This document shows, in pieces, positions 2,465 through 36,563 of a DNA stretch of 41,948 bases (position 1 is the stretch's first letter; each line of letters begins with the position of its first letter). Origin of the DNA: a phage; assembly GCA_025284135.1 (NCBI GenBank), contig GCA_025284135.1_3646.2; one strand, given 5' to 3'. Made by a program: the position numbers and the translations under genes. The notes under the pieces are model-generated. The model ran no database searches. It was not told the DNA's origin and was given only the letters and a program-made list of their open reading frames with translations.

Positions 2465-2508
2465 AGAAGTGGAAAGTTCTTTTTAATCATTCAGCTTAAG
2501 GGGGCTGT

Positions 2509-3117
2509 ATGAAACTTGTGCATGGTGTTGGTATTAATGATGCAGACTATCCTGTCAGGGTTTTAGACAAGGATACTGGAAAGAGAATCATGTGTCCTTT
2601 TTATATGACATGGTCAAATATGCTAGGAAGGTGTTACCTTAAAAACAAGAAATTTGAAGCTTATGCTATGGTAGAAGTTTGTGAAGAATGGAAAATCTTC
2701 AGCAACTTCAAGCGTTGGATGGAAAAACAAGATTGGCGGGATAAATTTTTAGATAAAGATATCCTCTTTGAAAATAATCTTGTATACTGTCCAGAAGCGT
2801 GTATTTTTGTTCCCCGTGAAATAAACAACTTCTTTGTAGCAAGGGTGCCACAAAGAGGTGAGTGTTTGATGGGGGTAAGAAGAAAAGGCCCCTCTTTTGC
2901 TGCCTATTGCAAAGATGGGGTTAAGGACACGCGGGTTTATCTTGGAACCTTCCCCACGCAGATTGAAGCACATATGAGATACTTAGAATATAAACTGCAA
3001 CTTCTTAGAGACTTGATTGGAACTGTAGATGACAGTAGGTTGCTATTAGGATTACGAAGAATTGAGAATAAGATAGTTTTAGCTTTATCTTCAAAAACAC
3101 CGATAGAAAATTTTTAG
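2509..3117 (+). CDS. free-standing homing-endonuclease-like DNA-binding protein (AP2-type domain)
   Basis: W-x2-M-x2-RC ... EW motif common to phage HNH/AP2 endonuclease-like proteins, YLGTF AP2-like segment; RBS AAGGGGG. Confidence 0.45.
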   Translation: MKLVHGVGINDADYPVRVLDKDTGKRIMCPFYMTWSNMLGRCYLKNKKFEAYAMVEVCEEWKIFSNFKRWMEKQDWRDKFLDKDILFENNLVYCPEACIFVPREINNFFVARVPQRGECLMGVRRKGPSFAAYCKDGVKDTRVYLGTFPTQIEAHMRYLEYKLQLLRDLIGTVDDSRLLLGLRRIENKIVLALSSKTPIENF

Positions 3118-3125
3118 AGGCATGT

Positions 3126-3473
3126 ATGAAAGTTTGGATAGATGATTTGCGTAACCCAGCTGACTACGGACATGTAGATGCAATTTGGTTTAAAACATCA
3201 CAAGAGGCTATGGAGTTTCTCAATAATCCTGCTAAAATGTATCGAAGAGTGACAGAGTGGTTCTTTGACCACGATTTGGGTGAAGACTCTGATCAAGACG
3301 GATATGCTGTTTTATTGCGCCTGGAAGAGCTATTTGTATTTGGTAAGCCTCCTGTAGTTGACAACGTGAAGATTTTCGTGCATACTTCTAATCCATCAGC
3401 GGCTCGTAAATTCATGCTTGCAGCTGACTCGTTTAAAAAGTTTGGAATAGAGATTAAACAAAACATCTACTGA
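3126..3473 (+). CDS. hypothetical protein with WIDDxRxP / DHDLG / HTSNP motifs (possible receiver-like cyclic-phosphate-processing domain)
   Basis: 115-aa ORF, RBS AGAGG; three conserved-looking acidic/His motifs; 9 nt upstream of Sir2 gene. Confidence 0.35.
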   Translation: MKVWIDDLRNPADYGHVDAIWFKTSQEAMEFLNNPAKMYRRVTEWFFDHDLGEDSDQDGYAVLLRLEELFVFGKPPVVDNVKIFVHTSNPSAARKFMLAADSFKKFGIEIKQNIY

Positions 3474-5598: not shown

Positions 5599-6881
5599 TG
5601 CATCAAATCAAAACAACACTGTACGCACTGAACAAAGATGGCAGCTACCAACAGTGGAAAGTATTCACGGATGGTGATAAGGTTATCGTAGAGTTTGGCA
5701 AGCTTGATGGTAAACTGCAATACAAAGAGACGATCTGCACACCTAAGAACGTAGGTCGTGCCAACGAGACTACAGCTGAGCAACAGGCCGAGCTTGAGGC
5801 TATCAGTAAGTGGGAAAAACAAGTCCGTCTGGGGTATGTTGAAAACATGGAAGATTGCGAGCAGGGTGTTGACCTTTTACCCATGCTGGTGCATGACTAT
5901 CTGAAGCGTGGCAAGGCACTTAAATTACCTTGCTGGATCTTGCGTAAGTTAGATGGCCTTCGTCTGCTTGTTGTTTTCCAAAATGGTGAGCCTAAATTTA
6001 TTTCCCGTGGTAATAAGTCCTACCCTATTCAAGGAAAGCTTTTAGAGCAACTTCGTTCTTTCCATTCTACCACTGGGATTAAACAACTTGATGGGGAACT
6101 ATACATTCATGGTCTTCCTTTGCAGAAAATAGTGTCTCTTGCTAAACGGTGGCGCACACAGGAAGAGATTCAGGCCGAGATCGATAAAGACTATGAGGCA
6201 GATAAAAAACGCCGTCATGCCGCAATTAAGGCAGGCTTATCAACATACAAAAACTTCAACAAGGTAGATATTCCTGTCAATGTTGAGCCTGTTCGTGATG
6301 ATTTGCGTTACGGTGGGTACTGTAGCTACGATCTGGAGTATCACATTTTTGATATTCCTAGCGACAAGGTGTGGTGGGATCCAGAAACAGAGTCTGGACG
6401 CTGCAAGGATCTTATGGATGCAGAGGATACCGTTACCACTCTGATGCTTGACCATATCAAGGTTGTTGACGCAGAGCTTGCGTACACAGTTGATCATTGC
6501 GAAGAATCTGTTGGTATATTCATGTCCGAAGGATATGAAGGTACCATTATGCGTAACTTCTGTGGTAAATATGAGTACGGTCAGCGAACATCTGAAGCAT
6601 TGAAATGGAAAAAGTTCAACGACGCAGAGGTGAAAGTTATTGACGTTGAGAAAGATAAGAATGATGAAGGTGTTCTTATCTGTGTTGACAAGGAAGGTAT
6701 TGTTGTTAAAATGAAAATGAAAGGTACGCACGAGGAGCGTAGCTATGACAGAATGCAGGAAATGATCGGCAAGTTTGTCACCTTCAAATATCAAGCAAGG
6801 ACAGAAGACAACAACTACCAATTCCCTGTCGGTATCTGCGTCCGAAATGTTAACCCAGACACTTGGGAGGTGCTGGAATAA
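5598..6881 (+). CDS. ATP-dependent DNA ligase
   Basis: Motif I KLDGLR (adenylation lysine), 427 aa, stop/start overlap with upstream gene. Confidence 0.85.
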   Translation: MHQIKTTLYALNKDGSYQQWKVFTDGDKVIVEFGKLDGKLQYKETICTPKNVGRANETTAEQQAELEAISKWEKQVRLGYVENMEDCEQGVDLLPMLVHDYLKRGKALKLPCWILRKLDGLRLLVVFQNGEPKFISRGNKSYPIQGKLLEQLRSFHSTTGIKQLDGELYIHGLPLQKIVSLAKRWRTQEEIQAEIDKDYEADKKRRHAAIKAGLSTYKNFNKVDIPVNVEPVRDDLRYGGYCSYDLEYHIFDIPSDKVWWDPETESGRCKDLMDAEDTVTTLMLDHIKVVDAELAYTVDHCEESVGIFMSEGYEGTIMRNFCGKYEYGQRTSEALKWKKFNDAEVKVIDVEKDKNDEGVLICVDKEGIVVKMKMKGTHEERSYDRMQEMIGKFVTFKYQARTEDNNYQFPVGICVRNVNPDTWEVLE

Positions 6882-7023
6882 TTTAGGTATGTTTAGTAGC
6901 CAATTGAATAAGTGTTTTCAATTTGCACCTACATATGCCCTGATGTATGAACTGTGCAACCTAGCCACACCACACAGTGGTGCTGATCGGGGCTCGTTAT
7001 GAGTGAACTGGAGAGTATGAAAA

Positions 7024-7512
7024 ATGAAACTTGATAAAAATGTTCAACGAAAGGCTTTCTTGGATATGATCGCATATTCGGAAGGCACAGATAATGGTAG
7101 ACAACCTACCAAGGATCGGGGATACGATGTCATAGTCGGAGGCAAGCTGTTCAGCGATTACAGCAAGCATCCCGGTGTTTACGTTAAGCTAAATGCTAAA
7201 CTTACCTCCTCCGCTGCTGGGCGTTACCAGGTTTTGGAGAAGTTTGCTAAACACTACATGGAACAGCTAGGATTGCCAGATTTTGGCCCTGCCAGTCAGG
7301 ACAAGATTGCGTTGCAACTGATCCGTGAGTGTAAGGCGCTCGATGATATTGATGAAGGTCGTATCCACCAGGCCATTTATAAATGCCGCAGCCGCTGGGC
7401 AAGCTTCCCACCACCGCCGGGGGCTGGAAAGCTGTACAATCAGCGAGCAGAAAGTATAGACAAGATGCTGGATGTCTTTAAGAAGGCAGGTGGAGTTGTT
7501 ACAGATGAGTAA
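7024..7512 (+). CDS. endolysin, lambda R-like lytic transglycosylase
   Basis: QRKAFLDMIAYSEGTDNGRQPTKDRGYDVIVGG...AAGRYQ closely parallels phage lambda R N-terminus as recalled. Confidence 0.85.
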   Translation: MKLDKNVQRKAFLDMIAYSEGTDNGRQPTKDRGYDVIVGGKLFSDYSKHPGVYVKLNAKLTSSAAGRYQVLEKFAKHYMEQLGLPDFGPASQDKIALQLIRECKALDDIDEGRIHQAIYKCRSRWASFPPPPGAGKLYNQRAESIDKMLDVFKKAGGVVTDE

Positions 7513-8188
7513 CGGGATTGACTGGTGGAGTGTCTTTAGATATGATACAGGCACTGGAAGGTTGTTTTGGAAGTCCCCACCAAAAAACAAACCCCAACTA
7601 ATGGGAAAGGAGGCTGGATGTACTAACATGGACGGGTACAGGGATATAATCTATCGTGGCGTGCATTACTACAGGCATAGATTGGTTTGGGAGATGCATT
7701 ATGGGCCCATCCCAGAAGGGTACGAAGTTGATCACATAAAGCCACTTTTCTATTCCGATGGTGTTGCTGATGACAGGATAGAAAACCTGCAACTGTTAAC
7801 ACCAGAAGAAAACGCAAAAAAGGCGGCAGATGACGGATGCCTGGCACGCAAGATACCTAAATCCAACACTGGACACTTGGGTGTATATTTTCATGCTAGA
7901 ACTGGAAGGTATGCTGCTTTTGGTAAGGTAGGTCATTACTATAAGAAAGACCTAGGAGAATACGATACCTTAGAAGAGGCCATTGCTGCTCAAAAGTCTT
8001 TTGAAAGTGGCACGTTTGTCAGGGAATATCGTGGACAGCCTTTAGGGAGGGATAAATCTAGAGGTGTCAGATTTGAAGCAGATAGGGGCAAATGGAAAGT
8101 AACTTTCAGAGGAAAAACGTTAGGCAGGTTTGACACCAAAGAGTCTGCTGAAGCGTGTTACGCAAAGGCTCTTACTGAAAGCTTGTAA
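7505..8188 (+). CDS. HNH homing endonuclease with two AP2-type DNA-binding domains
   Basis: HRLVWEMHYGPIPEGYEVDHI...NLQLLTPEEN HNH core; two GVYF/GVRF...LGxFxTxEEA AP2-like repeats; ATG overlaps endolysin stop. Confidence 0.75.
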   Translation: MSNGIDWWSVFRYDTGTGRLFWKSPPKNKPQLMGKEAGCTNMDGYRDIIYRGVHYYRHRLVWEMHYGPIPEGYEVDHIKPLFYSDGVADDRIENLQLLTPEENAKKAADDGCLARKIPKSNTGHLGVYFHARTGRYAAFGKVGHYYKKDLGEYDTLEEAIAAQKSFESGTFVREYRGQPLGRDKSRGVRFEADRGKWKVTFRGKTLGRFDTKESAEACYAKALTESL

Positions 8189-8196
8189 CAGTATCA

Positions 8197-21524: not shown

Positions 21525-21803
21525 ATGAGCTGTGAAAAATCTTTTTTCTTTATTATTTACGGTAAAGATAACTGCCCACATTGTGTAAGAGCAAAAGAAT
21601 TTGCAGTCAGTAAAGGTCTACCTTTTGTATATAAGACACTTGGCGAGGGTTACACAAAAGAAGAGCTTATTGAGAAGTGCAGTCCAATCGTACCCAGAAC
21701 GTTGCCGCAGATCTTCTTAGAAAGTAATCTTGAAAGTGCCCATATAGGCGGTGCCGATGATTTCATCTCTTTTGTTAAGAATGGTTTTGGAGAGAAAAAG
21801 TGA
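21525..21803 (+). CDS. glutaredoxin (NrdC/NrdH-like)
   Basis: CPHC redox motif and HIGG motif resembling T4 NrdC. Confidence 0.7.
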   Translation: MSCEKSFFFIIYGKDNCPHCVRAKEFAVSKGLPFVYKTLGEGYTKEELIEKCSPIVPRTLPQIFLESNLESAHIGGADDFISFVKNGFGEKK

Positions 21804-22960
21804 AAGTTGTAAAACGGGACGGTAGAGAAGAGGTCTATAACGGAATTAAGGTGATCAAGGCGGCAGAGTCCGCCTTACTTGAGTCTGGACATACTGAAGA
21901 AGAAGCTTACCGGATCGCCTGCGCGGTTAATGAAGTTGTTGCTAACAATCTACCAACCGACCAGTGCACGATCTCTGTAAAAAATATCCATATCCTTGTT
22001 GAAGACGCTCTTATGGATATGGGTTTAAAATGTGCAGCCAGAGAATACATCCAGTATAGGCAGACAAGAGATAATAACAGAGAGGCAGGTGGAAAACTGC
22101 TTGCAGATATTAGTGGCTTCTTGGATCGCACTTGTGATGAATTTACAAAAGAAAACGCAAATAAGCCTACCAATCATGTACACACTCATCGTGACCTGCT
22201 TGCAGGCATCCTTAGCAAACACCTTGCATCAACACAGATCCTGCCAGACCGTGTCTCAGAAGAGCACAATAAAGGCTTCATCCATGTGCATGATCTTGAC
22301 TATTTGATCAGTCCGTTAACAAACTGTTGTTTGGTAAATTATCCAGATATGTTGGAAAACGGATTCAACATTGGTAACGCCCATGTCAGTAAGCCGAAGT
22401 CAATAGGGGTTGCAACAACAATCCTTAGCCAAATCTCTAGTGCAGTAGCTAGTGCTCAATATGGAGGTCAGACTATGAGCCATATTGATCATTATCTGGC
22501 ACAGTATGCTGAAGCGACCTATGAGAAGAACCTTAAATTTTGCCAGGAACATTGGTTGCCAGATGCTGAGACTGTTGCAATGCAAATGACAGATAAAGAC
22601 GTATTTGACAGCATGCAGACTTTACTCTATCAAATCAATACGTTAACTTCTGTCAACGGGCAAACTCCATTTATCACATTAAGTTTAGGACTGGATACCT
22701 CGGCCTTTGGTAGAATGATTACCAAAAATTACTTGAAAGTCCACAAAATGGGTCTTGGTGAAGAACGTATCACACCTGTGTTCCCTAAAGTGCTGTTCTT
22801 CCTAGAAGAGGGTGTCAACATGAACCCTGGAGATCCTAACTATGATTTGAAACGATTAGCTCTGGAATGCTGTGCAGAACGTATCTACCCTGACTTCGTA
22901 TCTGTACCACTAAATAGAAAAGTGACAGGCTCGACAGATGGCAAAGTAACGAGCATGGGT
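21800..22960 (+). CDS. nrdD: anaerobic ribonucleotide reductase class III, exon 1
   Basis: ATP-cone N-terminus, NPGDPNYDLKRLALECCAERIYPD...KVTGS matching NrdD; exon predicted to end at U 22960 (...KVTSMG). Confidence 0.85.
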
Positions 22961-23722
22961 AAACTATAACTGCTCATGTAAAATCTATCTAAACGGGGAA
23001 ACTCCAGAACGGACAACCCCGTGCTAAACGTAACAGAACTCCTGACCAAGAGGAGTCCTGAAATGAGAAAACAAATTCGTGATTTTGAAGGTTATGAAAT
23101 TGACGAGATGGGCAATGTTTATTGCACCCGCTACGAAAATGAAAGAATTATTCATTCGTGGGAAGAGATAAACACAGGTTACCGTCTTGTCAGGATACGC
23201 AAGAACAAAAAGACTGTTTGCCTAAGGGTTCACAGACTTGTTGCTGAAGCGTTCTTACCAAATCCAGACAATTTACCCTATGTTAAGCACAAAGGGGACA
23301 ACAGGAAAGATAACAGTGTATACAACCTTGAGTGGGGAGCTTGCCCAGACAATACGCAAGAAGGATACAACAACAACTGTTATGCTTTTTACACAAGATG
23401 CCACGGTGTGAAAGCCACCAACAAATTAACTGGTGAGGTTTTCCACTTTAAAAGTCTGAGATGTTGTGCTGATGTTTTAGGAGTAGATAGAAAAAGAATA
23501 TCTGCTATCCTGAAACGTGGTGCGCCTAATAACTATGATTACGAGTTCTGTTACGAAATGCCTAACGACTAACCGTGATGAATGTAGCGGTGTAGGGTGT
23601 AAGCCGATGACACTCGAAATGGTAGACACACTAAGTGTGAAGATATAGTCTGATCTGCATGGGGACATGCAGCAGCACGTAAAGGTGCGGGGGTGGACTT
23701 GCGAACCACCCTGAACATAATG
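22961..23722 (+). mobile_element. group I self-splicing intron (T4 td/nrdD-like) carrying an HNH homing endonuclease ORF
   Basis: Exon ends in U; intron GCTCATG (22972-22978) pairs with exon CATGGGT (P1 with U-G); AAGATATAGTC at 23639-23649 matches conserved group I S element; intron ends in G at 23722. Confidence 0.75.
23063..23572 (+). CDS. intron-encoded HNH homing endonuclease (HNH_3 / NUMOD4-like)
   Basis: GNVYxxRYENERIIHSW...GYRLVRIRKNKKTVCLRVHRLVAEAFLPNPDNLPYVKHKGDNRKDNSVYNLEWG; ATG 23063 after AAGAGGAG. Confidence 0.8.
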   Translation: MRKQIRDFEGYEIDEMGNVYCTRYENERIIHSWEEINTGYRLVRIRKNKKTVCLRVHRLVAEAFLPNPDNLPYVKHKGDNRKDNSVYNLEWGACPDNTQEGYNNNCYAFYTRCHGVKATNKLTGEVFHFKSLRCCADVLGVDRKRISAILKRGAPNNYDYEFCYEMPND

Positions 23723-24700
23723 TGTAGAAGTTTCTTATCGAAATATAGCGACCCTGTAACAGGTGAGGAGAAATACCTTGGCAGATTTAACTTAGGCGTT
23801 GTTAGCCTTAACCTGCCAATGATTGCGGCAAAAGCTAAAACGGAAGGTGTTGATTTCTTTGCAGTTCTTGACGAATACCTGGATCTTGCATACGAGGCTC
23901 ATCTTGTAAGGGTTAACCGTCTAAAAGGAACAAAGGCAGGGCAGAACCCTATCATGTGGTGTGAAGGCGCTCTTGCTCGCCTGGATCCTGAAGAGAGTAT
24001 TGATAAACTCTTCTATGACGGGTACGCTTCCATTAGTATTGGGTATATCGGTGTGTATGAAACCTGTCAGATTTTGGGTAGGGAGGGTGACAAGGCTTTA
24101 GCTCTTGGAATCCTTCAGCACATGAGAGATGCTTGTGAGCGATACAAGAAGGAAAGTAGACTAGCGTTTAGCTTATACGGCACCCCTTCTGAGAGTCTAT
24201 GCTATAAAGCTGCAACCTGCCTGGATCGTGAATATCCTGAAGTGTTGAAGCACGAGCATGAATATCTCACCAACAGTTTCCATCAGCCAGTATGGATCAA
24301 TAGCTCTCCTTTTGATAAGTGGAAGTATGAGGAAGGTTTTGCTATGATCTCCTCTGGTGGCAACATCGGATACGTAGAGACACCAAATCTGAAAAACAAC
24401 TTAGATGCTTTGGAAGCTCTTGTGGATTTCGGATATAAACACATTATGTATTTTGGTATTAACCAACCTGTGGATAAATGTCTCAAGTGTGGTTTCTCTG
24501 GTGAGTTCAGTGCAACAGCTAAAGGGTTCTGCTGCCCTGCGTGCGGATGCCACGATGAACGATATATCTCAGTGATCCGAAGAGTGTCTGGCTATCTCTC
24601 CAGCCCGAACAGTAGACCGTATAACACAGGTAAACAAGCAGAGGTTATCGAACGTGTTAAACATATTGGGAATGTAGACTGTTGTCCGTTGAGTAAATAA
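23723..24700 (+). CDS. nrdD: anaerobic ribonucleotide reductase class III, exon 2
   Basis: Begins CRSFLSKY; contains zinc ribbon CLKCGF...CPACG and glycyl-radical motif RRVSGYL. Confidence 0.85.
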   Translation, partial: CRSFLSKYSDPVTGEEKYLGRFNLGVVSLNLPMIAAKAKTEGVDFFAVLDEYLDLAYEAHLVRVNRLKGTKAGQNPIMWCEGALARLDPEESIDKLFYDGYASISIGYIGVYETCQILGREGDKALALGILQHMRDACERYKKESRLAFSLYGTPSESLCYKAATCLDREYPEVLKHEHEYLTNSFHQPVWINSSPFDKWKYEEGFAMISSGGNIGYVETPNLKNNLDALEALVDFGYKHIMYFGINQPVDKCLKCGFSGEFSATAKGFCCPACGCHDERYISVIRRVSGYLSSPNSRPYNTGKQAEVIERVKHIGNVDCCPLSK

Positions 24701-24711
24701 GGAAAGAGATT

Positions 24712-24741
24712 GAGAGCAAGGATGCTCTCATTTTTGTTTTT
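24712..24741 (+). terminator. rho-independent terminator
   Basis: GAGAGCA-aggat-GCTCTC followed by ATTTTTGTTTTT. Confidence 0.5.
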
Positions 24742-24742
24742 A

Positions 24743-24771
24743 TTGACTTCTATTCCTCTTTTCTATAGTAT
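24743..24771 (+). promoter_or_regulatory. sigma70-like promoter (TTGACT, 17 nt, TAGTAT)
   Basis: TTGACTTCTATTCCTCTTTTCTATAGTAT. Confidence 0.4.
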
Positions 24772-24809
24772 GCAATATAAAGTGAATAGCGGAAGGGCCT
24801 GGTCTGGTA

Positions 24810-25742
24810 ATGAGGAGACTAACAACCGAAGAGTTTATAGAAAAAGCTCAGACTATACATGGTGACAAATATGATTACTTCAAAGTGGAGTATAAAAACA
24901 ACAAGACACCTGTGTGTATAATTTGTCCTGAGCACGGTGAGTTCTGGCAAACCCCTGTGGCACATGCTTTCAAGAAGCATGGTTGTCCAAGGTGTGGTGG
25001 GTCAGCGAAAAAGAACACTGAAGAGTTCATAAAAGAGGCTATGGCTGTTCATGGGGACAAGTACGATTACTCATTAGTCAAATATGCGAACATGAGAACG
25101 CCTGTAAAAATTGTTTGCCCTGAACACGGTGTGTTTGAACAATACCCTGAAAACCACTTATACCAAAGAAACGGCTGCCCAGAGTGCTATGACTTAAGAC
25201 GTGGGCAAAGTCAAGCGTTAACCCATAAGGAGCATGCTGCAATTATCCACAAAGCCAACCCAGACATAGAAATATTAGAGAAAATTGCCAATGATAACAC
25301 AAAAGTGCAATGTAGGTGCAAAATTTGTGGGTATAAGTGGTCTGCTAAACCTAATAACCTAAAAAGTGGTCGTGGCTGCTGTAAATGCGCACAAAATGGA
25401 TTCTTATCTCATGAGTACGGTAAACTCTACATTATGGTTGATGACTTAGAAGTGCCAACACTTATGAAAATCGGTGTATGCGTTAAAATGCACAGGAGGA
25501 AAAATGAGGTGCTTAACAGTGCTCGTAAATCTGGCGCAGGTGTCCACACTCTTCACGTAGTAAAAACATGGAGCGGATCAACTCAAAACATGGTAGATTT
25601 AGAAAAATCTGTGCATAAGGCCTTCAGCAAGTATAAAATAAACTTTCCTGTAAAATTTGACGGTAGCACTGAGTTTTTCTACTACAGGCCTGAAGTGTTT
25701 GACACGGTAGAGGAGGTATACAAGAAGATTTGTGGTAAATGA
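24810..25742 (+). CDS. T5orf172-domain (GIY-YIG superfamily) protein with N-terminal tandem zinc-ribbon repeats; putative mobile endonuclease
   Basis: C-terminal GKLYIMVDD...KIGVCVKMHRRKNEVL...GSTEFF resembles T5orf172; three repeats with CPEHG...GCPxC. Confidence 0.5.
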   Translation: MRRLTTEEFIEKAQTIHGDKYDYFKVEYKNNKTPVCIICPEHGEFWQTPVAHAFKKHGCPRCGGSAKKNTEEFIKEAMAVHGDKYDYSLVKYANMRTPVKIVCPEHGVFEQYPENHLYQRNGCPECYDLRRGQSQALTHKEHAAIIHKANPDIEILEKIANDNTKVQCRCKICGYKWSAKPNNLKSGRGCCKCAQNGFLSHEYGKLYIMVDDLEVPTLMKIGVCVKMHRRKNEVLNSARKSGAGVHTLHVVKTWSGSTQNMVDLEKSVHKAFSKYKINFPVKFDGSTEFFYYRPEVFDTVEEVYKKICGK

Positions 25743-25794
25743 TCGTAGAAAGATATGCATATCTTAAACATGCTATTAACTAAGGAGGTACAGT

Positions 25795-25911
25795 ATGTCT
25801 ACAGGTATTTATAAAATTTGCAAGTGCGGATGTCGTTGCAATCTTCGTTGGTGCAAGGCACTGGACGATTTTATTTGGCATTGCCCTGAATGCGATGCGG
25901 AGTATCTATGA
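25795..25911 (+). CDS. small cysteine-rich protein (38 aa), translationally coupled to nrdG
   Basis: Strong RBS TAAGGAGG; MSTGIYKICKCGCRCNLRWCKALDDFIWHCPECDAEYL; stop overlaps nrdG ATG (ATGA); below ORF-track length cut-off. Confidence 0.4.
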   Translation: MSTGIYKICKCGCRCNLRWCKALDDFIWHCPECDAEYL

Positions 25912-26381
25912 ACATTGTCGGATACACAGAAATATCTTACACCGAAGGGCCAGGTATTAGAACTGCCTTGTGGGTATCTGGGTGCCCACACGCTTGCCCT
26001 GGTTGCTTTAATCAGGCATTTTGGTCAAAAGATAAGGGGAGAGAGTTCACCGAAGAAGATTTGCAGAAAATTTTGTCGGATTTAGACAATGAATCTGTAT
26101 GCGGTATTTCTTTACTTGGTGGAGAGCCTTTGGCTACTTATAATGAGCCAGGTATTATAGACCTTATGAGGAGAATTAAGGAAAAGTTTGGTGACAAGAA
26201 AACTATTCTTGTGTATACTGGGTTCACATTTGACCATATCTCTAGTGATGTTCTTAAACTGGCTGATATCATCATTGACGGTAAGTATGTAAAAGATTTA
26301 CCAACCAAGAAACCGTTCCGAGGCAGTGATAACCAAAGAATGTTTAAAAAAGTATCGGGCGGTTGGGTCCAGGTAGACTAG
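25908..26381 (+). CDS. nrdG: anaerobic ribonucleotide reductase activating protein (radical SAM)
   Basis: GPGIRTALWVSGCPHACPGCFN cluster-binding motif; ATG 25908; ORF-track start 25890 is likely too far upstream. Confidence 0.85.
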   Translation: MNIVGYTEISYTEGPGIRTALWVSGCPHACPGCFNQAFWSKDKGREFTEEDLQKILSDLDNESVCGISLLGGEPLATYNEPGIIDLMRRIKEKFGDKKTILVYTGFTFDHISSDVLKLADIIIDGKYVKDLPTKKPFRGSDNQRMFKKVSGGWVQVD

Positions 26382-32783: not shown

Positions 32784-33131
32784 ATGTCAAAGATTAAATC
32801 GATATTGATGTGGGTAGCTGTTGTGGCTTTTATAGGGTACTGGACTTGGGAAACTGAATTAAAAGATATCGGATATACCAGTCTTGAGAGCAAGGCGTGC
32901 ATTGGCATAACCGATGCGTTCAGGCAAAATGCTATGGATCACGAATGTGTTGATGCAGATATAGATGAGAAACTGTCTAAGGACAAAGATTTTTACCATG
33001 GTCATGCCTTGCTTGATAGTGGTGACACTGTAGAATTCTGGTCGTGGTTCCGTGAAGATGGGACAATAAAGACAGCAGTAAAGATTTCCAACAAAGAGTT
33101 GATGCTGTTGCAGCAGAAGGAGGTGCAATGA
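32784..33131 (+). CDS. hypothetical protein with N-terminal signal-anchor
   Basis: RBS AGAGGTAGAGAG; ILMWVAVVAFIGYWTW. Confidence 0.5.
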   Translation: MSKIKSILMWVAVVAFIGYWTWETELKDIGYTSLESKACIGITDAFRQNAMDHECVDADIDEKLSKDKDFYHGHALLDSGDTVEFWSWFREDGTIKTAVKISNKELMLLQQKEVQ

Positions 33132-33415
33132 TCTGGATATCCTACGCTGATGGCACCATGCTGTATACTGCAGGTACTAGATATGAAGTTAAGGAGGACG
33201 ATAAAAAATTTATCGTAAAAACATTTGACAAGGACGACAACCTTTTGCTAGAATTGACTTACAAGGTTGGGGATGTATCTAGCATCCAATTGGATTGCGG
33301 TCATAAAGATAACCCGCTCAAGAAACCTGGGGTAGGTAAAGCTTCAGAAGAACGCCTGTCTCGTATTGCAGAAAGCGTTTCTGCACAAAAATCTAAAAAG
33401 GGGACTAGAAAATGA
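33128..33415 (+). CDS. hypothetical protein
   Basis: ATGA start/stop overlap with upstream gene. Confidence 0.45.
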   Translation: MIWISYADGTMLYTAGTRYEVKEDDKKFIVKTFDKDDNLLLELTYKVGDVSSIQLDCGHKDNPLKKPGVGKASEERLSRIAESVSAQKSKKGTRK

Positions 33416-33606
33416 AAAACTTACGTTTTAACACTTATTACTACAACACTTTGAATGATTTGTATTATATTGTTCGAAGTAAAAATCCTGAAACAGTCCT
33501 ATTCTGCCGCGAACCTTTCAAAGGAGAGGAAGTGGAGTCTGAGATGAATGTTAGCCAGATTACCTCTTTGTTGCTCTCAGGTGCAATGGAAGAAGCAATA
33601 TTCTAA
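33412..33606 (+). CDS. hypothetical protein
   Basis: ATGA overlap; 64 aa. Confidence 0.4.
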   Translation: MKNLRFNTYYYNTLNDLYYIVRSKNPETVLFCREPFKGEEVESEMNVSQITSLLLSGAMEEAIF

Positions 33607-33624
33607 ACCAGGCGGGAGGGTTTT

Positions 33625-33810
33625 ATGAAGCACTATTGTCTGTCTGGTAGGATGGGGGTGGATTGTGATTGGGTTTTCTTAAAACTTGTCAGCGTTCGAG
33701 AGTCCATCCCAGAGGAAGAGCAAGAAAGTGAGCTGATGTCATGGATCAACTATTACGGCAACACTTTCCGGTATGTCAAAATGGAAGAGCTGCCAAACGA
33801 GGCTGATTGA
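33625..33810 (+). CDS. hypothetical protein
   Basis: RBS GGGAGGG; 61 aa. Confidence 0.45.
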   Translation: MKHYCLSGRMGVDCDWVFLKLVSVRESIPEEEQESELMSWINYYGNTFRYVKMEELPNEAD

Positions 33811-33905
33811 TTATGGTCACATCAATATTAACGTTTATGGGTGGCGTGGCATTCGGATTCATTATTTGTCTGTTTATAGTTATTATGGCTATGCGAGGCT
33901 GAATT

Positions 33906-34190
33906 ATGAAACTGTTCGAGTGGTTTAAAAAGTTTAAATACCAGGCTGTTGCTGTATCGAAATGGACCGTCCGCTGGGTGGATGATGATGGAACACAAAT
34001 TCCCGGTGATCAGGATACCGGATACTGGGTTATGATGGAGAACGGATTTGGGAAAAGGAAGTTTAAATGTGTTGGTGCTCCTACTCTTTTAAATGTTAGA
34101 AGTGTGCCAGGGTACAGCACTATGGTTGTTTGGGAGCTATCCGGTGTTCCTCCTGCTAATGTGCAATATCTGCCAAACCCAGAAAAATAA
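33906..34190 (+). CDS. hypothetical protein
   Basis: 94-aa ORF with GAGG upstream. Confidence 0.45.
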   Translation: MKLFEWFKKFKYQAVAVSKWTVRWVDDDGTQIPGDQDTGYWVMMENGFGKRKFKCVGAPTLLNVRSVPGYSTMVVWELSGVPPANVQYLPNPEK

Positions 34191-34202
34191 AAGGAGAAGA
34201 TA

Positions 34203-34487
34203 ATGAGCAATAGTGTTAGCAATAGTGCTGCAGAGTTTAAAGTGATCTGTAAAGGAACTTATTGGATAGTGAAACAGAAAGTGTACCTATTCGGTTTCAT
34301 ACCGTTTTGGCAGAGATTTTGCTGGGGAGCTAACGAGCTTAAGAGATACGCAACCAAGGCTATGGCACTTATTGGTATAGCTGAATACATTGCTGCCAGA
34401 GACAGAGAGGGGAAAACTTGTTACTACACTGCTGACGAGATTCGTAACAGTGTTTACGTCCCACAACCACCTGATGGAGACCGTTGA
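34203..34487 (+). CDS. hypothetical protein
   Basis: RBS AAGGAGAAG. Confidence 0.45.
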   Translation: MSNSVSNSAAEFKVICKGTYWIVKQKVYLFGFIPFWQRFCWGANELKRYATKAMALIGIAEYIAARDREGKTCYYTADEIRNSVYVPQPPDGDR

Positions 34488-34711
34488 TGAAAGTTAAAGT
34501 TTTAGATTCAAGCTTCTATATTGGTCAGGAGCCTTTAGTAGGGAAAGTGTTTACTGCTGTCCCTAACGAAGATTACCCTGACCTTTTAAAAATAAAAGGG
34601 GCAGATCTTATTGCAGCTGGTGCATCTCAGGAATGCTTTGACAGTCAGTGGACCTACAACTTTGCCCTAGGAGAGGATGTGGAGATAGTGGAGGACGATC
34701 ATGAAGGTTAA
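34487..34711 (+). CDS. small acidic protein, tandem paralog family
   Basis: MKVKVLDS...KGADLIAAGA...DVEIVEDD; overlapping start/stop. Confidence 0.5.
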   Translation: MKVKVLDSSFYIGQEPLVGKVFTAVPNEDYPDLLKIKGADLIAAGASQECFDSQWTYNFALGEDVEIVEDDHEG

Positions 34712-34955
34712 AATTCTTGACTCTAACGTCTACTTGGGACAATCCTTCCTGAAAGGAAAGGTCGTACCTGCGGTATACTTCGAATGGTTGCCTGACAACG
34801 ATCCTGTGCGTCAGAAGCATTCCACTGTATCACACTGTGTGGTATTTATTCGCGGGTCAGATCTGATCAAAGCTGGTGTCCCCAAGTATTACTTTGGGGA
34901 AGAACATTACTATGCCTTCGGTGTAGGAACAGATGTAGAGATTGTAGAGCGGTAG
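34701..34955 (+). CDS. small acidic protein, tandem paralog family
   Basis: MKVKILDS...RGSDLIKAGV...DVEIVER. Confidence 0.5.
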   Translation: MKVKILDSNVYLGQSFLKGKVVPAVYFEWLPDNDPVRQKHSTVSHCVVFIRGSDLIKAGVPKYYFGEEHYYAFGVGTDVEIVER

Positions 34956-34956
34956 T

Positions 34957-35355
34957 ATGAAGAACAAGCTTTTCAAAGTAACAATGAAAATTCGCGGAGC
35001 TTGGAGCGTAAAGCAAGGACGTATTCCAGAATTTGAGAAAGACTTCTACGTAGTCTCCACATCTGAGGAGGCTGCATGCTGGCAGGCTGGCTATGCCTAT
35101 GCAAGAACATGGTACGAAGGGTACCAGACTGGTGGCTATGACGGAGAAATTATCAGCAAAGGTGTAGAAGAAATTAATGTGTTGACAAGTGAAAAAGTTT
35201 TTGTTATAGTGCATCCAGATTCCAGAGTGAAGCATTACTGGAATGCCAGAACAAAAACTTGGACACCGTTTGCAGATTCTGCTACACCACTTTTAAACCA
35301 AAAAGCTCTTGACTCTGCCCCGAGCTATGGGGTTGTTGAAGAAAAGCTAAACTGA
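34957..35355 (+). CDS. hypothetical protein, paralog of 37164..37559
   Basis: Shares HPxS...YW...WTP...L C-terminal pattern with 37164 ORF. Confidence 0.5.
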   Translation: MKNKLFKVTMKIRGAWSVKQGRIPEFEKDFYVVSTSEEAACWQAGYAYARTWYEGYQTGGYDGEIISKGVEEINVLTSEKVFVIVHPDSRVKHYWNARTKTWTPFADSATPLLNQKALDSAPSYGVVEEKLN

Positions 35356-35372
35356 AACAGTGAGGTGCCACT

Positions 35373-35663
35373 ATGATGGATTTAGTTCTGAATATTGATA
35401 ACGCAGGAGAGGTTAAAGACGATGGTGTAACAAGCATGGACCAACCATGCCCTGCCAAGATTGACTCAAAATGGACCTATAAGTTTGACGGAGAGATCTT
35501 TGCAAATGATGAAAAGGTTGTAGATGCTGCAGCCATTTTGAACGCTCTAGGGTACGACCCTGTGAATTCTTTGATCAAGGATCCTGTTGAGTTTGCAGAG
35601 TATGTTCGAAAAATGGCAGATCTTGCTGTAGATATTTTAGATACTATCGACAACAAGCTGTAA
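35373..35663 (+). CDS. hypothetical acidic protein
   Basis: RBS GAGGTG; 96 aa. Confidence 0.45.
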   Translation: MMDLVLNIDNAGEVKDDGVTSMDQPCPAKIDSKWTYKFDGEIFANDEKVVDAAAILNALGYDPVNSLIKDPVEFAEYVRKMADLAVDILDTIDNKL

Positions 35664-35669
35664 AAACTG

Positions 35670-35698
35670 TTGACACAACGCTTCAGCTATAGTATTAT
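35670..35698 (+). promoter_or_regulatory. sigma70-like promoter (TTGACA, 17 nt, TATTAT)
   Basis: TTGACACAACGCTTCAGCTATAGTATTAT. Confidence 0.55.
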
Positions 35699-35745
35699 TG
35701 TTTTCAAAGAGAGAGTTATTCCCTCTTCTTTAAAAGGAACACGTT

Positions 35746-36062
35746 ATGCAAATTGAGATCACTGGCAACGTAGAAATCACCGAAGGTATGGTGTCTTTCA
35801 TTCCCACAAAATGTCAAAACTGGAGCGTCTACATCCTTCTGTAAATCATGCACGTGTGAGTGTAAAAGTTGAAAATGATCACCAGGAAGTTATGGCGTTC
35901 ATTTTTGACACTTCTGGAAAAGAAGTTATTGCCAAAGCCAAAGGCAGTGATGCTTACGAGGCAACTGACCGTATGGTAGATGTTGCAGCACGTCAGCTGG
36001 CTAAATGCGGTGGCAAGAAAGGTAAAGGGAAAGGAAAAGTAAAGATTGACTTTGGAGAATGA
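35746..36062 (+). CDS. hpf: ribosome hibernation-promoting factor (Hpf/RaiA/YfiA)-like protein, interrupted by an apparent -1 frameshift near 35815-35820
   Basis: Frame A (ATG 35746, RBS AAAAGGAA) encodes MQIEITGNVEITEGMVSFIPTKCQ, like Hpf N-terminus MQLNITGNNVEITEALREFVTAKFAK; frame B (35811..36062) encodes KLERLHPSVNHARVSVKVEN...ARQLAK, like the rest of Hpf. Confidence 0.55.
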
Positions 36063-36199
36063 GGTGCTACAATGGGTGTGATTAAGAAATCAGTCCCAAG
36101 TGTAGAGATTGCATGCTTTGAAATTATGTTTGCAATCGCAGTTGTAGTTAATGTGTTAGGTTACGGCTATTAATATCAAATAATTGAGGAGACCTCTAA

Positions 36200-36469
36200 A
36201 TGAAAATTAAATTATTCAAAACTGAGCTGGCAGACAAAAATTGTGGTCTGGTTGAAGGCATGATTGTTGAAGCACAACCAGTGGACTATATGAAGGTGGT
36301 TCGTGATGCCCTTGGTGAAGGTTTTGATCTGATGGAGCCAGCTCTGCGGGAAGATGTTATCGAGATGGCTAAAAAGCACACACCTGAAGGCTTGGTGGTG
36401 TTTGTTGCACCAGGTAACGGAGAAGAGTTGATTGTAACTCCTGATGTGTATGAGATTGTAGAAGAGTAA
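36200..36469 (+). CDS. small acidic protein, tandem paralog family
   Basis: RBS GAGGAGA; C-terminal VYEIVEE. Confidence 0.5.
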   Translation: MKIKLFKTELADKNCGLVEGMIVEAQPVDYMKVVRDALGEGFDLMEPALREDVIEMAKKHTPEGLVVFVAPGNGEELIVTPDVYEIVEE

Positions 36470-36563
36470 TCCTGCTTGGATTAGTATACTCCTTTAATAA
36501 AAAGAAAAGTTTGTAATTATTTGTGGGAAAGGAATCCCCATCTCTTGCCAGAGGTGATACTAT

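Follow-up and report, generated by a model that had tools for sequence, protein, structure and literature searches.

Phage-encoded HPF in rV5-like phages is already published and widely annotated. Mizuno et al. (2019) listed the rV5 protein ABI79209 and five close relatives as phage HPF, and found high sequence conservation between viral and cellular HPF, the coliphage proteins falling in clusters with the gammaproteobacterial ones (PMC6375957). When the rV5 HPF was expressed in E. coli it was present in the crude extract but absent from 70S or 100S ribosomes washed with high salt, and 100S formation was unchanged (PMC6375957). The paper describing the rV5 genome does not discuss the gene (PMC3606486). 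Judged by homology, an intact phage Hpf should bind the 30S decoding region. Since the rV5 protein was absent from salt-washed ribosomes and left 100S formation as it was, the function of even an intact phage hpf is unproven.

Here we analyzed an hpf gene in a stretch of 41,948 nucleotides (the window), a contig of an rV5-like phage (Vequintavirus) filed in an NCBI third-party E. coli assembly. The 1.2 kb around hpf matched 118 phage records at 90-97% identity, all of them rV5-like myoviruses of the genus Vequintavirus, and the window itself was absent from the phage collection, its best match there over 22 kb being about 95% identical. In total 335 phage records matched the surrounding 22 kb and 118 of these carry hpf, which makes hpf an accessory gene within the wider group, a status that fits with its loss being tolerated. 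The closest matches to the window over the 22 kb are 18 unannotated MG0656xx records (e.g. A147, A135 and A142), 95-97% identical to the region, which are entered as 'Campylobacter phage' with C. jejuni as host; for rV5-type coliphages this host label looks doubtful. The record of the window itself (that of HCN6553840.1) places a strictly lytic-type rV5-like contig under Escherichia coli, and several other 'E. coli' records in the protein cluster of HCN6553840.1 are on contigs as long as a whole phage genome (134-136 kb). Contigs of this size in E. coli records suggest that rV5-like phages recur in isolate runs, either in a carrier state or as contamination.

The hpf locus spans positions 35746..36062 of the window (+ strand, 317 nt) and is broken between two reading frames. 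The 5' fragment is an ORF of 32 codons (35746..35844, + strand; MQIEITGNVEITEGMVSFIPTKCQNWSVYILL) with its stop codon TAA at 35842-35844, and of its residues the first 19 are native (MQIEITGNVEITEGMVSFI) and the following 13 are out of frame. The 3' fragment is an ORF of 83 aa (35811..36062, + strand; MSKLERLHPSVNH...KVKIDFGE) that starts 65 nt past the start of the 32-codon ORF and therefore lies in the -1 frame. As the -1 frame is open from 35757, the two frames are both open over 88 nt (35757-35844). Direct reading places a Shine-Dalgarno sequence, AAGGA (35734..35738, + strand), 7 nt 5' of the ATG at 35746, and an RBS is annotated at the homologous position in the record of phage Mangalyan. 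Upstream of this is the sigma-70-type promoter driving hpf (TTGACA-17 nt-TATTAT; 35670..35698, + strand), which agrees with the consensus at 11 of 12 positions, is conserved across an alignment of five phages and corresponds to the annotated promoter P144 of the rV5 record DQ832317. A preliminary description, made from the letters alone, had reported a good RBS, a 32-codon ORF with a continuation in the -1 frame and a strong consensus promoter ahead of the gene, and the sequence is exactly so.

Two further elements lie close to these signals. Between the promoter and the RBS, the 5' UTR of hpf contains an imperfect inverted repeat (AAAGAGAGAG...CCCTCTTCTTT; 35706-35731) with arms that vary among the relatives, being perfect in rV5 (AGAGGG/CCCTCT) and changed by a 2-nt insertion in naswa. 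The hairpin is weak in the window, with a predicted energy of -5.3 kcal/mol and a z-score of +0.21 against shuffled sequence. Another promoter-like site, TTGACT-16-TACAAT with a TG-extended -10 (10/12), is present at 36046-36073, where it overlaps both the end of hpf and the start codon (ATG, 36072) of a 33-aa ORF (36072..36173). If this site is real, its transcripts would start inside or after the 33-aa ORF and serve the gene at 36200.

In the related phages hpf is a single uninterrupted CDS (rV5 ORF144, DrSchubert bas50_0153, Mangalyan_146 and naswa_174) of 318 nt in rV5, DrSchubert and Mangalyan and 321 nt in naswa, i.e. 105-106 codons. It is labelled 'sigma 54 modulation factor' in rV5, 'ribosome hibernation factor' in DrSchubert and 'ribosome-associated translation inhibitor' in Mangalyan. 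The five-phage alignment located the break: where the relatives read TTTCATTTCCCACAAAATG the window reads TTTCATTCCCACAAAATG, with one T missing. This 1-nt deletion in codons 19-20 (35801..35802, + strand), defined by the alignment and the junction strings, shortens a T3 run to T2, so that every readable relative has CATTTCCC and the window has CATTCCC. When the T was restored the sequence read MQIEITGNVEITEGMVSFISHKMSKLERL... and encoded a protein 100% identical to the HPF of DrSchubert and Mangalyan and 97% identical to that of rV5. The deletion is the sole defect of the window hpf, and the gene is otherwise undamaged. The preliminary description was right that a -1 shift, equivalent to one added base, is needed to read through the gene; its proposal that the indel is in one of two A4 runs (35808-35811 or 35816-35819) was rejected, as both runs are unchanged in relatives with intact genes.

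That the window copy alone is broken was further supported by a broader comparison of the homologous locus, which the preliminary description had suggested and in which the relatives had hpf in one frame. The repaired protein was searched with tblastn and matched 118 Vequintavirus records, each covering at least 80% of the protein in one place; in the 60 of these 118 rows that were sampled across the ranking, each match was a single piece. The label 'sigma 54 modulation factor (x2)' in naswa, navn and magaca hinted at a split gene shared between phages, and this was rejected as annotation carry-over. In naswa hpf is one 321-nt CDS, and the second label belongs to an unrelated 89-aa ORF downstream. 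The 89-aa ORF is the homologue of 36200..36469 in the window, and the same mislabel is presumably found in navn and magaca. Labels vary in other records as well: many enter hpf as 'hypothetical protein', and vB_EcoM_12A_SA_NWU, bov10K2 and bov22_2 enter it as 'ATP-dependent protease La Type I'.

Membership of the encoded protein in the HPF/YfiA family was settled by curated HMM thresholds together with homology to proteins in the PDB. The joined protein scored 49.2 bits (E 9e-13) against Pfam PF02482 (Ribosomal_S30AE; cutoff 23.7), with residues 3-88 aligned to profile positions 1-83 of 88 and the alignment spanning the junction. Against TIGR00741 (HPF/YfiA family; cutoff 40.9) the repaired protein scored 50.0 bits, residues 1-91 being aligned to positions 1-94 of 102, and residues 1-89 of the HPF protein aligned to residues 1-89 of E. 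coli HPF in 2RQL, 4V8H and 6H4N with E-values from 1.5e-12 to 3.7e-12. The more specific equivalog models gave scores under their cutoffs, 57.5 bits for the Hpf model NF007780 (cutoff 125) and 20.3 bits for the RaiA model NF007654 (cutoff 158). On these sequence matches the locus is a gene for an HPF/YfiA-family (S30AE) protein, with a similarity far beyond chance, and the preliminary recognition of a phage hpf homologue is borne out by the Pfam, TIGR00741 and PDB matches, the N-terminus included. A single uninterrupted ORF for the whole S30AE domain is absent from the window, where the domain is split between frames at 35801-35802.

In the databases searched, the deletion is private to this strain. 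An 80-nt query was similar enough to seed alignments with 14 phage records, and none of the 14 carried the deletion, each having 81 nt where the window has 80. A 22-mer with the deletion form had no match in IMG/VR and none in the JGI metagenomes, the one IMG/VR contig that matched an adjacent motif derived from the window had hpf intact, and complete E. coli genomes held no copy of the hpf region. An exact look-up of the protein encoded by the upstream neighbour returned ten public contigs, nine with an hpf of 105 aa and the tenth from the window's own strain. One of the nine, contig _794 of run SRR21143905, is a near-identical sister: compared with window 33873-36499 (2,628 nt), its only differences are a synonymous G/A at 35459 and the T in hpf; the remaining eight are about 94-95% identical to the window. 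Based on its accession, which is close to that of run SRR21143357, SRR21143905 probably comes from the same study as that run. Within hpf there are 3 nt differences between the window and Mangalyan and 8 between the window and DrSchubert, all synonymous, and the comparison with rV5 gives 14 nt differences that fall in synonymous codons plus 3 codons that are changed. Because the substitutions relative to the nearest relatives are all synonymous, hpf was under purifying selection until very recently.

The missing T may be a mutation or an artefact. In a Logan assembly of SRR21143357, window 32811-36405 (3,595 nt) is matched at 100% identity, the T2 included, by a contig of 18.6 kb, and the agreement of two pipelines (Logan and NCBI TPA) argues against an assembler artefact, which makes a pure assembly error unlikely. 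How prone the window is to indels was assessed by tblastn with each ORF of 60 aa or more in the 43.5 kb of DrSchubert and Mangalyan that is syntenic with it. About 160 of these ORFs had matches in the 42 kb, and hpf was the only annotated gene split across frames; the further cases flagged were ORFs on the wrong strand and an insertion in nrdD that keeps the frame. Other indels that were not a multiple of three, where mapped, lay in spacers between genes or formed compensating clusters where genes meet. With no second frame-split gene among those annotated, and with the mapped indels intergenic or compensated, an error-prone assembly was rejected.

A read-level or polishing artefact, with TTT in the true DNA and an intact hpf, has more to recommend it. 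The lesion sits in a homopolymer, T2 is unique among the public copies compared, the sister sample has TTT, and the repaired gene is flawless. Moreover, the two agreeing assemblies probably come from the same run and share its reads, so that T2 could have arisen in both from a mixed population or from an error made systematically at the read level, and a lone lesion in 42 kb is by itself insufficient to tell mutation from error. Nevertheless, T2 was called by two different assemblers, T3 is a very short run for a homopolymer error, and an error-prone platform would have left further frame breaks, of which the comparison of about 160 ORFs over 42 kb revealed none. The window and the sister also differ by the genuine-looking synonymous SNP, which suggests that they are distinct populations with real differences. 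NCBI TPA pathogen assemblies use Illumina reads, in which consensus indels at a T3 are rare, and this too counts against an error. We consider such an error unlikely, and of the sequencing indel put forward in the preliminary description this is the part that stands, as the main rival; the A4 location does not hold, and a fault of assembly is improbable given the two assemblers. A very recent loss-of-function deletion of a single T in a known accessory phage hpf is the reading that we favour with good confidence, and it agrees with the 'fresh pseudogene' that had been listed among the first options, the deletion being private and the relatives intact.

Some other differences between the window and its relatives came up in these alignments. 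The nrdD gene is split into 21800..22969, with the ATP-cone and the N-terminal half of the NRDD domain, and 23693..24700, with the C-terminal NRDD half and the glycyl-radical domain. The insert between the halves is 762 nt (22961-23722) and is absent from the uninterrupted 707-aa nrdD of DrSchubert. It contains a 183-aa ORF (23021..23572) with weak, sub-cutoff matches to HNH_3 and to an I-HmuI NUMOD-like domain, and at 23567-23672 a sub-threshold Rfam match to a group I intron (33.2 bits against a gathering threshold of 50; E 1.7e-6). The insert is probably a group I intron bearing a homing endonuclease, similar to the intron of T4 nrdD. The nrdD of Mangalyan carries an HNH gene elsewhere in its sequence. 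At 2474-3331, 5897-8192 and 24664-26269 the alignment to DrSchubert and/or Mangalyan is poor or absent; these stretches are variable islands, and in the relatives homing-endonuclease genes lie near them. Nearer to hpf, an 11-nt indel at 34954-34957 coincides with a change in length of the next-but-one gene upstream, which encodes 132 aa in the window, in Mangalyan and in some Logan contigs and 123 aa in DrSchubert and others.

NCBI annotates the 83-aa ORF as HCN6553840.1, 'TPA: HPF/RaiA family ribosome-associated protein [Escherichia coli]', which implies that 35811..36062 encodes a functional short protein translated on its own. The ORF does start with ATG and by itself passes the PF02482 cutoff (32.7 against 23.7 bits), and ribosomes terminating at 35844 would be at most 31 nt from the ATG at 35811. 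This ATG, however, is preceded by CATTCCCACAAA, in which there is no Shine-Dalgarno sequence, and its Met is an internal residue in all relatives. The ORF also lacks the first 22-24 or so positions of the S30AE domain: its Pfam match covers profile positions 23-84 of 88, with positions 1-22 missing, and its match to TIGR00741 begins at position 25 of 102 and stays below the cutoff (26.9 against 40.9 bits). None of the other public genomes compared encodes this short form. The HPF fold is beta-alpha-beta-beta-beta-alpha, and the 83-aa product would miss strand 1 and about half of helix 1, which makes an independent function unlikely. Altogether we regard an independently translated and functional 83-aa protein as very improbable. 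The preliminary description had allowed that the ORF at 35811 might stand alone and the N-terminal similarity be a coincidence; with a Met that is internal in the relatives and an Hpf similarity far beyond chance, this is not supported.

Expression by ribosomal frameshifting had also been proposed. The 88-nt overlap contains two Z_ZZN tetramers in the 0 frame, both considered as possible -1 slip sites: U_UUC (35796..35799, + strand) and, in the first A4 run, A_AAA (35808..35811, + strand). A slip at either one would restore the native length of the protein, with one or two residues substituted. Rescue of this kind, 'savior' frameshifting on indels, is a known concept (PMC5009743). In E. coli, Sharma et al. 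measured all Z_ZZN tetramers, and unstimulated ones gave a shift of 0.147% compared with a background of 0.112% (PMC4066793), i.e. a rate near background. Codon-by-codon reading of the overlap (35757-35844) in the 0 frame revealed no slippery heptamer X_XXY_YYZ. The RNA downstream of U_UUC and A_AAA had predicted energies of -7.3 and -6.3 kcal/mol, with z-scores of +1.16 and +0.57 versus shuffles, and is thus no more stable than random folding of the same bases, and a scan of the whole window at Rfam gathering thresholds gave 0 matches. Among the hpf homologues there was no conservation of a two-frame arrangement, the relatives being in frame. The A_AAA tetramer is identical in intact relatives, and since both tetramers and their flanks also occur where the gene is in frame, they did not evolve for shifting here; we judged both to be background only. 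Productive transcriptional slippage requires runs of about 7-9 identical bases, and the runs of 3-4 found here are far too short. Programmed frameshifting was accordingly rejected, for want of a heptamer, of a stimulatory structure and of a conserved split. As for a functional recoding at low dose, in which full-length Hpf arises by -1 slippage at U_UUC or A_AAA or by transcriptional slippage, we give it a minimal chance, because with no heptamer, structure or long homopolymer run full-length Hpf is expected at background level only.

If the deletion is real, as we favour, ribosomes that start at the ATG at 35746 would make 19 native and 13 out-of-frame residues and stop at 35842-35844, and the remaining 75% of the domain would lie in the -1 frame behind an internal ATG that has no Shine-Dalgarno sequence. 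From this truncation, little or no functional Hpf would be made. Unprogrammed slippage at U_UUC or A_AAA may yield at most about 0.1% of full-length product, and possibly there are traces of an 83-aa fragment devoid of the N-terminal strand and half of helix 1. As hpf is accessory, its loss is presumably tolerated by the phage. In itself the lesion matters little, since it is routine to meet a frameshift of one base in a draft contig. Still, the 83-aa 'HPF/RaiA' annotation should be flagged as a frameshifted pseudogene fragment, and a real deletion would make the window strain and the SRR21143905 sister a natural knockout/wild-type pair in which the role of phage Hpf could be addressed.

Set beside the described HPF proteins, the window protein has the S30AE domain in common with the short Hpf of E. 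coli (YhbH; 2RQL, 4V8H and 6H4N), end to end over residues 1-89, and differs from it in the C-terminal tail, which is Lys/Gly-rich in the window protein (KCGGKKGKGKGKVKIDFGE) and KHKDKLKQH in E. coli Hpf. It falls under the equivalog cutoffs that define E. coli Hpf and RaiA, yet passes the family-level model TIGR00741. The genes for the HPF of rV5, DrSchubert and Mangalyan (ABI79209, QXV77619 and WNM70573) share with it the locus, the promoter, the RBS and the neighbours, and what sets the window copy apart from the other public copies that could be read is the loss of one T, which splits it into ORFs of 32 aa and 83 aa. With genes that are expressed by programmed -1 frameshifting, such as dnaX (A_AAA_AAG), the IS3/IS911 transposases and the tail-assembly chaperone G/GT, it has in common overlapping ORFs in the 0 and -1 frames and the presence of Z_ZZN tetramers, whereas the heptamer, the stimulatory structure, the upstream SD element and the conserved split are features of those systems and not of the window.
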